Shown: positions 3,784 to 14,067, counted from the first letter of the stretch. The stretch: 29,941 bases of DNA from Lachnospiraceae bacterium (GCA_017412265.1 JAFPYK010000211.1:1-29941), one strand, 5' to 3'. Made by a program: numbers and translations. Notes: generated by a model not told the origin, from the sequence alone.

Positions 3784-3812
3784 TTGACATCATTTTGTGA
3801 ATATGTTATATT
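3784..3812 (+). promoter_or_regulatory. Sigma70/SigA promoter with extended -10, driving the ugd cassette
   Basis: TTGACA (3784-3789), 17-nt spacer, TG-n-TATATT (-10 at 3807-3812). Confidence 0.8.
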
Positions 3813-5388: not shown

Positions 5389-5422
5389 TGAACGATCCGT
5401 CAGGAAGGAGAATTTTACCAAT

Positions 5423-6601
5423 ATGAGCAAGAAATGCGAAGAACGCTTTTATGAGATCTATCAGAGAGACGCAGAAGGCGTCTCCTTCTGCCCCTACCGT
5501 ATCTGCCCGATCGGTGCCCACTCGGACCACAACCTCGGCAAGATCACCGGCCTCGCGATCAACAAGGGCATCCATATCGCCTACCGCCCGAAGAAGAACG
5601 GCGTCATCGAGATGGCTTCCCTCCAGTTCCCGAAGCGAGCCCAGTGGCACATCCATTCCGTGCCGAAATTCAAGGAAAATGACTGGGCCGACTACCTGCG
5701 CGGCGCGACGTGGGCTCTCGAGAAGCACCACACCCTGAACGTCGGCCTCTGCGGCGTCATCGAGGGTTCCCTCCCGATCGGAGGCCTCTCCTCCAGCGCG
5801 GCCGTCATCCTGGCCTTCCTCTCCGCTCTCTGCAAGGTGAACGGAATTCATTTAACCGCGCAGCAGATGATCGACACCGCGTTCGACGCGGAGAAGAACT
5901 ACGTCGGCGTCTCCGTCGGCACCCTGGACCAGAGCTGCGAGGTGTTAGGCAAGAAGGACCATCTCCTCTACCTCGACACCAGGGACAACTCCTACGAGCT
6001 GATTCCCACCAGCCCGGTGATGAAGCCCTACAAGATCGCGATCTTCTTCAGCGGCCTGGAGCACAGCCTCGCCGGATCCAAGTACAATATGCGTGTCGAC
6101 GAGCTCCGCTCCGGCGTCTACGCGCTGCAGGCCTATGCCGGTCTCCCTTATGGGAAGTTCAACGAAGCCAACGCGAGAAATGTCCCGCGCGAGATCTATG
6201 ACGCCTACAAGGACCGCCTGCCGATCCCGTGGGCGAAGCGCTGCGAGCACTGGTATACGGAGTTTGAGCGCGTGGAGAAGGGCGCCGAAGCCTGGCGCCG
6301 CGGCGACATCGAGGAATACGGCCGCCTCTCCTTCGAGTCCGGCTGGAGCAGCATCCACAACTGGGAATCCGGCGCTCCGGAGCAGATCCGTCTCTACGAG
6401 ATCATGCGCGAGACCAAGGGCATCTACGGCGGGCGCTTCAGCGGAGCCGGCTTCAAGGGCTGCTGCATGGCCCTGATCGATCCCGCCTACGTGGAGAGCA
6501 TCGAAGAATCTGTCACAAGCAAATACCTGGGATCTTTCCCGGAACTCACCGGCAAATACTCCTTCCACCTGTGCGAGAGCGCCAACGGAACCGAACGTTA
6601 A
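5423..6601 (+). CDS. GHMP-family anomeric sugar kinase, galacturonokinase-like (392 aa)
   Basis: PYRICPIGAHSDH, GLSSSAAV, GTLDQS, FSGL, YNMRV, KRCEH and YGGRFSGAGFKGCCMA. Start set at the ATG at 5423 after an AAGGAG RBS. The family is certain; the substrate is inferred. Confidence 0.85.
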   Translation: MSKKCEERFYEIYQRDAEGVSFCPYRICPIGAHSDHNLGKITGLAINKGIHIAYRPKKNGVIEMASLQFPKRAQWHIHSVPKFKENDWADYLRGATWALEKHHTLNVGLCGVIEGSLPIGGLSSSAAVILAFLSALCKVNGIHLTAQQMIDTAFDAEKNYVGVSVGTLDQSCEVLGKKDHLLYLDTRDNSYELIPTSPVMKPYKIAIFFSGLEHSLAGSKYNMRVDELRSGVYALQAYAGLPYGKFNEANARNVPREIYDAYKDRLPIPWAKRCEHWYTEFERVEKGAEAWRRGDIEEYGRLSFESGWSSIHNWESGAPEQIRLYEIMRETKGIYGGRFSGAGFKGCCMALIDPAYVESIEESVTSKYLGSFPELTGKYSFHLCESANGTER

Positions 6602-8451: not shown

Positions 8452-8492
8452 AAAAACGCCTGAGAATCCGCAGATTCTCAGGCGTTTTTTTT
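8452..8492. terminator. Bidirectional intrinsic terminator between the convergent epimerase and wzx genes
   Basis: AAAAACGCCTGAGAATC-cgca-GATTCTCAGGCGTTTTT perfect inverted repeat; T8 on the plus strand and T5 on the minus strand. Confidence 0.92.
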
Positions 8493-12007: not shown

Positions 12008-12928
12008 CTACGACTCCTTGCCGGGCAATTTGATCCAGCTGCCCAGCAGCAGATCATATTCCTTCTTGTCAAACGGTGCGAACCCCGCCCCGTCATAGAA
12101 CGTCAGCTCTCCGAAATACAGCTTCCCGCTGACACAGTACCAATCCACCCGGATGTGCGGGATTCCTTCCGACAGGATGCGGGAGCAACGAAGCATCTCA
12201 TCCAGTACCGGCGGCTTCGGGAAATCCTTCCCCGAGGTGTGGTATTTCCGGAGCTGTCCCTGCGAGATCTCGCTTCTCTTCCACTCCACGTCATAGTAAT
12301 CCTGCGTGGGATGGTCCGAGTATCTCCCCTGGTGCAGCTCGATGAGCTTCGGCTCTCCGCCGAAGCACAGGACCTTATAATCCCTCAGTTCCTCTCCGGT
12401 GTCGTCCTCCATGTACTGCTCTGCGATGATGCGCGGCTTGATATCCTTGTACGGCCACTCCCGGAACTTCTGATAATAGTTCTGCTTCAGCCCCTCGCGC
12501 AGGGTCTTCCGGGCCTTCTCTTCATCCAGCTTGCTGCGGTCCTTGCAGATCACGAGCCCGTGGCTGTCGTGCGTGCACTTGAGCACGAACTGGTCGGGCA
12601 GCTCCTTAAAATCGATGTCCTCCGCCCGCTCCCAGACACCCAGATTCGGAATCACATACTGTGCCCCGATCTTCTGCGAGACATATTCCTTCACCGCATA
12701 CTTGTCTGCCATCGTCGTATACAGCGGATTGTGATCATGCAGCTTCAGCCACTGCAGCTTCTCGTTGAATGTGCGCGGGTTTTCCAGATCCAGCGGATAT
12801 CCCATCAGCAGCCGGAACTTCTTCTTCAGGAACTTCTCATCCGACATCTTATTCAGGAAACCATAATCCGAGAGCACCGCGAAACGGTACTTCGGATCGC
12901 GCAGCAAACGAATGCATTTTTCGATCAT
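12008..12928 (-). CDS. TupA-like ATP-grasp protein, copy 1 (306 aa)
   Basis: PRTFNEKLQWLKL, DKYAVKEYV, FVLKCTHDS, REWPYKDIKPRIIAE, DYKVLCFGG, RVDWY, GELTFY. Confidence 0.88.
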   Translation of the reverse strand: MIEKCIRLLRDPKYRFAVLSDYGFLNKMSDEKFLKKKFRLLMGYPLDLENPRTFNEKLQWLKLHDHNPLYTTMADKYAVKEYVSQKIGAQYVIPNLGVWERAEDIDFKELPDQFVLKCTHDSHGLVICKDRSKLDEEKARKTLREGLKQNYYQKFREWPYKDIKPRIIAEQYMEDDTGEELRDYKVLCFGGEPKLIELHQGRYSDHPTQDYYDVEWKRSEISQGQLRKYHTSGKDFPKPPVLDEMLRCSRILSEGIPHIRVDWYCVSGKLYFGELTFYDGAGFAPFDKKEYDLLLGSWIKLPGKES

Positions 12929-12992
12929 GACTCTACTCCCGTCCTTTCATAGATCTTATCTACATTCTGATGATTTATTCAGTTATCGTCAG

Positions 12993-13017
12993 AAAAACTG
13001 CCGGCGCCTGCCGGCAG
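12993..13017 (-). terminator. Intrinsic terminator inside the polysaccharide operon
   Basis: Minus strand CTGCCGGC-aggc-GCCGGCAG-TTTTT, starting about 15 nt after the stop of tupA copy 2. Confidence 0.75.
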
Positions 13018-13032
13018 CACCTCTTACTTCTT

Positions 13033-13944
13033 CTATCTCTGCTTCGGCGGCAGGACGATCCAGTCTCCCAGCGTTCTGTCCCATTCCTCCGGCGTGAACT
13101 CCTCGAAGCCCCCGCCCGGGAAGAACGTCATCTCTCCGAAGAGGACCTTCCCGTCCAGATCATAGAAATCCACCCGCACGAAAGGAATCCCTTCGCTGAG
13201 GATCTCCGCAAGCCTGCACATCTCTTCATACTGCTCCGGCTTGTCGATCACTTCACTGCTGGCAGGATAATGCCGCTCGAAGGTCATCCGCTCCCAGTCC
13301 TTGTCGAAGAACGTGACCTTCAGCCCCTTCCCGTTGAAGCGGTCCGTGCAGACAAATGAGCACTTGACCTCGCCTCCGAAGCACATGATCTTATAATCAT
13401 TGAGCTCCCCGTGAGCATCCTCCAGGTAGGGCTCTGCGAGAATTCTCGGCTTGACGTTCTTGTACGGCCACTCTCTGCCGTAGTAGAAGAAATTCCTCGT
13501 CAGGCAATGATCAATCTTCTGTTTGGCGGCCTCTTTGTCCAGCCGGCTCTTGTCCTTGCAGATGACCAGTCCGCCGCTGTCATGCGTGCATTTGAGCACA
13601 AACTGATCCGGAAGAGCATCAAAATCGATCTCCTCAAAGGAATCCCACACGCCCAGCGTGGGAATGACATATTCTCTGCCGATCTGCTTCGACACATACT
13701 CCTTGACCTTCTCCTTGTCTACCAGGTCCGTATACTTCGGATTGTGGTCATAGAGCTTCAGCCACTGCAGCTTCTCGTTGAACGTCTTCGGCTCTTCGAG
13801 GTTCGGCTCACAGCCCATCACCACCCGGAATTTCCTGTGGATGAATTCCTCATCCGAGAGCCGGTTTAAGAACCCTTTGGACGCATTGACAAGAAATCTG
13901 TACTTTGGGTCTCTCGCATAGCGGATTAATTTCTGAATCAACAT
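13033..13944 (-). CDS. TupA-like ATP-grasp protein, copy 2 (303 aa)
   Basis: PKTFNEKLQWLKL, FVLKCTHDSGG, REWPYKNVKPRILAE, RVDFY, GEMTFFPGGG. Start moved to the ATG at 13944 (GAGGAG RBS). Confidence 0.88.
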   Translation of the reverse strand: MLIQKLIRYARDPKYRFLVNASKGFLNRLSDEEFIHRKFRVVMGCEPNLEEPKTFNEKLQWLKLYDHNPKYTDLVDKEKVKEYVSKQIGREYVIPTLGVWDSFEEIDFDALPDQFVLKCTHDSGGLVICKDKSRLDKEAAKQKIDHCLTRNFFYYGREWPYKNVKPRILAEPYLEDAHGELNDYKIMCFGGEVKCSFVCTDRFNGKGLKVTFFDKDWERMTFERHYPASSEVIDKPEQYEEMCRLAEILSEGIPFVRVDFYDLDGKVLFGEMTFFPGGGFEEFTPEEWDRTLGDWIVLPPKQR

Positions 13945-14067
13945 CGGTTTCTCCTCGCGCAAGTGAAACATATTGCCTGTCAGAGAAACAACGTTTCATA
14001 CTCCCATGTATGCTCAGATTCGTTACTTAGAGATCCGTTTTACCGGGACGCCTCCCGGCCTGCCCGG

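Follow-up and report, generated by a model that had tools for sequence, protein, structure and literature searches.

The window analyzed here (a whole stretch of 29,941 nts of DNA from Lachnospiraceae bacterium, an organism of the rumen) encodes a GHMP sugar-1-kinase, P0001 (392 aa), which belongs to a galacturonokinase (GalAK)-like 'GAHxDH' clade and is nearer in both sequence and structure to the characterized GalAK than to any galactokinase (GalK). Judging from its motifs, its relatives and its gene context, it is probable that this candidate GalA 1-kinase is an ATP-dependent enzyme that, together with the product of the next gene (P0002), salvages GalA into what is probably UDP-GalA for a surface polysaccharide. 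The analysis demonstrates the clade to which P0001 belongs, its intact catalytic residues, the layout of the operon and the conserved pairing with the transferase gene, whereas the identity of the sugar and of the nucleotide, as well as the role and destination of the product in the cell, are what we infer. To our knowledge, galacturonokinase has been characterized solely from plants. Our literature search, which left out most subscription-journal papers, found no paper on a bacterial galacturonokinase or on its partner transferase.

Membership of the kinase in a galacturonokinase-like clade

Positions 5423-6601 (+ strand) translate as a single open frame of 392 codons, and a Shine-Dalgarno-like AGGAAGGAG (5404-5412, +), as read from the sequence, lies 10 nts upstream of the kinase ATG. 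The protein has matches above cut-off to three Pfam domains, GalKase_gal_bdg, GHMP_N and GHMP_C (for the GHMP domains, PF00288 with E 1.4e-11 and PF08544 with E 4.6e-06, both above their cut-offs), and its motif II (LPIGGLSSSAA) and motif III (SGAGFKG) are those of the GHMP kinase superfamily. The initial annotation had described this gene as carrying galacturonokinase rather than GalK motifs, a description with which the motifs, the NCBIfam scores, the HMMER search, the tree, the AU test and the structure all agree. The sugar-binding signature PYRICPIGAHSDH (residues 24-36) is located at 5492-5530 (+), exactly where it had been placed, and the quoted INKGI, KRCEH, SGWSSIHNWESGA and GIYGGRFSGAGFKGCC are every one found in the translation; the motif given as FSGL..L...YNMRV is also there, with the true spacing FSGL-3-L-4-YNMRV, in which each gap is one residue longer. 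The plant motifs that had been given for comparison are in essence those of the galacturonokinases of Camellia sinensis (V9QNR1, here P0259) and Tetracentron (P0277), which have PYRICPLGAHIDH, PGYN(H/R)RV, SGLSSIQNYECG and GVYGARFSGAGFRGCC. GalKs of related genomes carry PGRVNLIGEHTDY and G(S/A)RMTGAGFGGC, and where the signature of P0001 reads GAHSDH, its GalK counterpart is GEHTDY.

None of the five NCBIfam galactokinase equivalog cut-offs is reached by P0001 (score/cut-off: 202.2/443, 194.9/385, 181.9/226.65 for TIGR00131, 164.1/499 and 120.4/509), and plant GalAK likewise lies under every one of them. When 1.84 billion protein representatives were searched exhaustively with HMMER, 610 were matched at E 1e-30 or better. 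Among the best 150 of these 610, all full-length proteins have G-A-H-x-D-H, with rare exceptions, and the same 150 include the Camellia and Tetracentron galacturonokinases and a Spirogloea protein (38-41% identity). The two galacturonokinases match P0001 at E 1e-50 to 1e-55. The motif likeness of P0001 to plant GalAK is far beyond chance, since all three Pfam domains pass and Camellia GalAK is matched at 202.6 bits (E 9.5e-55), compared with 138.9 bits for the best solved GalK.

The AlphaFold (AF2) model of P0001 has a pLDDT of 94.3. Its top structural match in Swiss-Prot is Arabidopsis galacturonokinase (Q8VYG2; TM 0.93, 34% identity), and every GalK ranks under Q8VYG2 among the reviewed structural matches; the solved GalKs give TM values of 0.82-0.88. 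There is no GalAK structure in PDB, where GalKs alone match this fold, and P0001 could be the first GalAK to have its crystal structure solved.

A maximum-likelihood tree was built from 69 proteins, namely 58 of the GAH type and 11 on the GalK side (nine GalKs, P0289 and the other GalK-like protein of this genome), and omits several chimeric-looking representatives of 400-550 aa. GalK is split from the GAH clade, with the query and the plant enzymes inside the latter, at 98/99 support, and a tree constrained to place the query with GalK was rejected by the AU test (delta lnL 37.5, p 0.009). Thus, P0001, for which branching within GalK had been proposed as a contrary result, lies outside GalK. 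The GAH family is large and mostly prokaryotic or metagenomic, with 34-57% identity between its subclades. Plant GalAKs form one group in it (99/96 support), and P0001 belongs to a separate 16-member group (99/95 support); the tree does not resolve the backbone between these two groups, nor does it make P0001 the sister of the plant enzymes. The one characterized relative, plant GalAK, is 34-38% identical to P0001 and sits in the other subclade.

Several differences accompany this separation. P0001 lacks an insertion of ~19 residues that plant GalAK has after the position of query residue 84, and the insertion is probably a feature of the plant lineage rather than a catalytic requirement. P0001 has N37, G337 and K345 where the aligned plant GalAKs (Camellia and Tetracentron) have Q, A and R, and it departs from the clade consensus (≥85%) at N37 (Q), L228 (C), G231 (A), A251 (L), C274 (A) and I334 (V). 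Owing to the different subclades, the missing plant insertion and these departures from consensus, P0001 is best regarded as a family member rather than as a demonstrated one-to-one ortholog. Of the earlier proposal of a bacterial GalAK ortholog, membership in a GalAK-like family therefore stands, on the tree, the structure and the gene context, and the word ortholog is too strong. The further suggestion that the gene is relevant to the origin of the plant enzyme gains little from P0001 alone, as a protein from another well-supported subclade, across an unresolved backbone, says little about it. In a 2012 survey, GalA kinase was not found in Physcomitrella or green algae (PMC3355719); in contrast, a zygnematophyte homolog of the GAH kinase (from Spirogloea) was found here.

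Alignment reveals that P0001 retains Arg26 and Asp169, the catalytic pair in the GalK fold, together with Asp35 and Tyr221, and that its motifs II and III are intact. Of the residues diagnostic of the clade, it has A32, H36, L168, G211, S310, G317 and F339; the GalK counterparts of Ala32, His36 and Leu168 are Glu, Tyr and Met, respectively. The Ala32 column contains Ala in 55 of the 58 GAH-clade members and Glu in 9 of the 11 proteins on the GalK side, and the His36 column contains His in all 58 clade members and Tyr in 10 of the 11. At column 221 (YNxR), Tyr is present in 41 and Phe in 17 of the 58 members, P0001 having Tyr. The basic residue of motif III is Lys345 in P0001, Arg in plants and Gly in GalK, and varies among R, K, G and N across the 58 GAH-clade members. 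On this alignment, His36 and Lys345 of P0001 are read as clade-specific.

The GalK Glu at the Ala32 position lies against the C6-OH of the sugar, so that its replacement by Ala may, as the initial annotation proposed, leave space for a C6 carboxylate, and the equivalents of Asp35 and Tyr221 in GalK structures presumably read the galacto C4. We take Ala32 and Tyr221 of P0001 to correspond to A41 and Y250 of AtGalAK. Yang et al. (2009) reportedly made the mutants A41E, Y250F and A368S of the Arabidopsis enzyme; the Y250F change is said to admit GlcA, and one residue can reportedly shift the sugar specificity in this fold. The same study is said to describe an extra segment ('extra domain') of plant GalAK near the sugar-binding motif.

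In summary of the shared features, Arabidopsis GalAK (Q8VYG2, EC 2.7.1.44) and its plant orthologs are in the same clade as P0001 and have in common with it the signatures GAHxDH, YNxRV, SSI.NYE.G and RFSGAGF(R/K)G. With GalK (TIGR00131; PDB 2cz9, 1s4e, 1pie and 1wuu), P0001 shares the fold, the catalytic Arg and Asp, motifs II and III and 25-32% identity, whereas GEHTDY, GIMDQ, RMTGxGFGG and the Leloir neighbors are absent.

The operon, the window and the source genome

From the sequence, the kinase gene reads as the second of a four-gene operon, which is preceded by a promoter-like site (3784-3812, +; TTGACA-17-TATATT with 11/12 matches and an extended TG, a consensus match only). The first gene, P0004 (3886-5388, +), encodes an XRE-type HTH fused to a UDP-glucose 6-dehydrogenase (UGDH), with Pfam matches to HTH_3 and to UDPG_MGDP_dh N, central and C, and a score of 292 for the NCBIfam nucleotide-sugar dehydrogenase TIGR03026 (cut-off 189.8). 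Its N-terminal HTH comprises ~80 residues (HTH_3 E 1.2e-13), so the operon is headed by an enzyme-regulator fusion.

Downstream of the kinase gene is P0002 (6621-7358, +), a short sugar-1-phosphate nucleotidyltransferase of 245 aa (NTP_transferase PF00483, E 2.4e-28) and a candidate GalA-1-P uridylyltransferase. It carries AAGYATRL (the G-x-G-x-R loop), VAGDN (the (V/A)GDN acidic motif) and EEKP (EKP). It reaches no NCBIfam equivalog cut-off, and no characterized close relative of it was found. The fourth gene, P0003 (7368-8432, +), encodes an SDR epimerase (Pfam Epimerase, E 3.7e-52) that is probably active as a UDP-glucuronate (UDP-GlcA) 4-epimerase. Its best PDB match is 5u4q (E 1.3e-100), deposited under a generic name; the B. 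cereus UDP-GlcA 4-epimerase BcUGAepi (6zl6) is matched at E 7.7e-34, WbgU and WbpP score alike, and a neighbor cluster in the Atlas is named 'putative UDP-glucuronate 4-epimerase'. A terminator-like hairpin (8452-8489, +; 17-bp stem and T run) lies between the operon and a convergent flippase gene.

On the opposite strand, the remainder of the window is taken up by a surface-polysaccharide locus with genes for a flippase, Wzy, GT2, an initiating transferase, and TagF-like, Stealth, LicD, DegT and Polysacc_synt_2 proteins. Two tandem TupA-like ATP-grasp genes were also observed in this locus (12008-13971, -; E 5e-72 and 8e-75). The TupA-like ATP-grasp family has been linked to uronic-acid polymers, and a uronic acid in the surface product would fit the presence of these two genes.

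Besides the window, its source genome was also examined. UxaC is encoded in it, and hexuronates therefore probably reach the cytoplasm; neither GH28 nor pectinesterase turned up in this MAG, which is 84% complete. A division of labor with a canonical GalK paralog was considered and rejected because the only other match, on contig C65, is also under the GalK cut-offs, and no protein of the MAG was found to pass any of them. This second protein with a GalK signature (L001:490-1902, -; G000 contig C65) has GGNHTDH and HGGGFAG, adjoins galE and belongs to a long-branch GalK-like family, its best TIGR00131 score being 134 against the cut-off of 226.65.

Gene neighborhoods and distribution of relatives

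Relatives were scanned in one genome per prokaryotic species, which gave at least 549 loci, and the 80 nearest (L017-L096; 67-82% identity to P0001) were taken as the close orthologs. The pairing of kinase and nucleotidyltransferase is conserved among them: a P0002 ortholog lies directly downstream of the kinase at 78 of the 80 loci, and of the two exceptions, one is on a contig that stops inside the kinase gene and the other on a contig that stops <1 kb beyond a UGDH gene following the kinase. Gene order is otherwise not constant, with an epimerase ortholog (≥58% identity) within 6 kb of the kinase at 44 and UGDH within the same distance at 35 of the 80 loci. In five genomes with no epimerase beside the kinase, an ortholog is present elsewhere in every case, and four of the five have UGDH; as a background value, the same epimerase is present in just 4 of 40 relatives of this genome.

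According to NCBI phylum, the 80 close orthologs belong to Bacillota (57), Bacteroidota (22) and Fibrobacter (1), and they were recovered from MAGs of the rumen, omasum, caecum, colon and other gut sites. On the kinase tree, Prevotella and Fibrobacter are nested among Clostridia, and no fewer than 3-4 switches of phylum are required. Since orthologs are 67-82% identical across phyla, the cassette appears to have been transferred between phyla; mis-binning is unlikely as a general explanation because several of the loci are on contigs of 70-280 kb. The kinase gene is absent from one genome of the same genus, and this absence, along with the phylum switches, indicates that the cassette is accessory and mobile.

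More distant members of the family (37-45% identity to P0001) were also analyzed, and six of eight have a short nucleotidyltransferase after the kinase. Such pairs were seen in a KSB1 bacterium, in a glycan locus of the actinobacterial type and next to a sodium:solute symporter. At the P0163 locus, kinase, epimerase, UGDH and nucleotidyltransferase are found together. In genome G039, the order GT, kinase, nucleotidyltransferase and PPTase is followed by a PL2 pectate lyase (E 1.6e-140), and the kinase P0190 adjoins UxaC, KduI and an SDR, which make up a hexuronate/pectin catabolic cluster. At E 1e-80, no epimerase ortholog was found in G010 or G039, both of which have distant kinases, and the distant member P0168 has none of these uronic-acid neighbors. 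Taken together, a tie of the kinase family to uronic acids is supported by independent gene context.

Several of these loci have peculiarities of their own. On the G039 contig (C11; L103:76-10070), the PF03407 GT and the GAH-type kinase come after an NRPS-like protein (C-A-T-TE) that is fused to an MFS transporter, and the product of this cluster may be a small molecule or lipid decorated with uronic acid. P0190 (L106:2186-9391) is a basal GAH kinase that has GFGG in motif III and no transferase, and is located in a UxaC/cupin/Ldh_2/IclR/KduI/SDR cluster, which puts a 1-kinase among genes for hexuronate catabolism. In P0163 (L104:6001-7314), LSAQ replaces the LDQ of the clade, leaving no catalytic Asp, and Leu replaces the conserved Tyr, and from these replacements the protein may be inactive or repurposed. 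The same-family genome G010 has a P0002 ortholog with an in-frame TAA (G010:C42:1736-2503), which could reflect either a pseudogene or an error in sequencing; the G010 kinase, 48% identical to P0001, is on a different short contig.

P0002 paralogs with 37-41% identity were observed in Clostridia without the kinase (L100-L102, in G035, G028 and G031), in the conserved arrangement pseudouridine synthase/transferase/QueG-like. They were considered as a clue to specificity and set aside, as the pseudouridine synthase and QueG-like genes that flank them say nothing about it. A possible kinase-transferase fusion, P0194 (570 aa), was also discarded: its kinase part is cut at residue 319, is without motif III and is joined to the first Met of the transferase, so that it is probably a deletion or an assembly artifact. 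In many representatives, among them P0147, P0148, P0159, P0205 and P0194, kinase residues 1 to 180-320 run into a domain with no relation to the kinase (UGDH C-terminus, recombinase, AAA_25, SIS or the transferase). Such representatives probably arose as chimeras during assembly or mark the junctions of rearrangements in a shuffled cassette.

Proposed role in GalA salvage and competing explanations

According to the proposed mechanism, free GalA from digested pectin would be taken up and then phosphorylated at C1 by P0001, and P0002 would convert the resulting GalA-1-P to NDP-GalA, most simply UDP-GalA, UTP being the simplest substrate because the neighboring enzymes handle UDP-sugars. The same operon would also make UDP-GalA de novo, by UDP-Glc dehydrogenase and then UDP-GlcA 4-epimerase, and both supplies would feed the surface-polysaccharide locus in the window. 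Given this de novo route, salvage looks redundant.

The role proposed for P0001 is the same as that of plant GalAK, i.e., GalA to GalA-1-P for UDP-GalA salvage. In plants, the transferase step after GalAK is carried out by the UDP-sugar pyrophosphorylase 'Sloppy' (PMC3355719), to which the partner of P0001, a 245-aa RmlA-like transferase encoded by the adjacent gene, is unrelated. Zebrafish DrGKUP is a GHMP glucuronokinase fused to a short bacterial-type nucleotidyltransferase (a putative UDP-GlcA pyrophosphorylase) and functions in uronic-acid salvage (PMC3938481). Like P0001-P0002, it couples a uronic-acid 1-kinase to a short nucleotidyltransferase; unlike this GalAK-like pair of two genes, it is one fused protein, of an unrelated GlcAK lineage, and its sugar is GlcA. 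Another analogous system is Fkp of Bacteroides fragilis, an L-fucokinase/GDP-fucose pyrophosphorylase (PMC11982464 and PMC6468028). It, too, is a gut-bacterial GHMP kinase and nucleotidyltransferase, salvaging a sugar of the diet or the host for use in surface glycans, and differs from P0001 in its GHMP lineage, its fusion into one protein, its neutral 6-deoxy sugar and its GDP carrier.

The main rival explanation is a different or broader specificity: P0001 could be an anomeric kinase of the same clade, still feeding the nucleotidyltransferase, whose sugar is GlcA (alone or with GalA) or a C6- or C2-modified galacto-sugar such as GalNAcA. P0001 keeps both Tyr221 and Asp35, which in GalK structures read the galacto C4 and would thus disfavor GlcA; among the 58 clade members, however, Phe at column 221 (17 members) and the variation of the motif III residue among R, K, G and N suggest that specificities differ. 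Similarly, GalAK is the best reviewed match of P0001, although specificity is known for just one member of this deep clade (34-57% identity between subclades). As to gene context, UGDH and the epimerase would be equally sensible with UDP-GlcA as the entry point, and the UxaC and KduI contexts do not separate GalA from GlcA, whereas the PL2 pectate lyase neighbor in G039 points to galacturonides. Moreover, known glucuronokinases have been reported to show almost no identity to GalAK (PMC2823444). Weakened by the residues, the pectate lyase and this report, a specificity other than or beyond GalA seems rather unlikely, while still deserving serious consideration.

An ordinary Leloir galactokinase with a divergent signature appears improbable. 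P0001 does match the Pfam galactose-binding signature, some of its relatives are named galactokinase by NCBI and IMG, and no protein of the MAG passes a GalK cut-off; but P0001 itself is under all five equivalog cut-offs, it has other residues at the Glu and Tyr positions of GEHTDY, the 98/99 split and the AU test (p 0.009) separate it from GalK, and its gene lies between those for UGDH and the nucleotidyltransferase with no galT, galM or galE adjoining. That P0001 is a non-catalytic sugar sensor or regulator is hardly credible, despite the precedent in this fold of the galactokinase-derived yeast Gal3p (PDB 3v5r and 3v2u) and a relative (P0163) without the catalytic Asp, as Arg26, Asp169 and motifs II and III are intact, the translation of P0001 is coupled to that of an enzyme requiring the kinase product, and the operon already has an HTH regulator domain of its own.

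Beyond GalA salvage by P0001 and P0002 in this organism, a more ambitious proposal can be put forward tentatively, with doubts somewhat outweighing confidence: that the genes constitute a mobile, self-contained GalA-salvage cassette, that this family is the prokaryotic stock of streptophyte GalAK, and that the transferase is the first GalA-1-P-specific pyrophosphorylase. If the cassette reading is true, herbivore-gut bacteria of at least three phyla would build surface glycans directly from dietary pectin. The observations suggest that bacteria of the rumen and hindgut recycle the sugar most abundant in pectin for their own surfaces and pass this ability between phyla. From a practical point of view, the Nidetzky group reported that the plant kinase lacked stability and had too little activity, so that a kinase suited to making GalA-1-P was lacking (PMC7984243), and UDP-GalA is consequently hard to obtain according to the same enzymology group (PMC7984243). 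A compact candidate kinase with its own transferase would offer a two-enzyme route from cheap GalA to NDP-GalA.

Public names of the relatives are inconsistent, including 'GHMP kinase', 'galactokinase' and, in IMG, 'galactokinase/galacturonokinase'. On account of the IMG labels, the idea of a bacterial galacturonokinase is already implicit in databases, and thousands of entries named 'galactokinase' or 'GHMP kinase' are probably misnamed or under-named.
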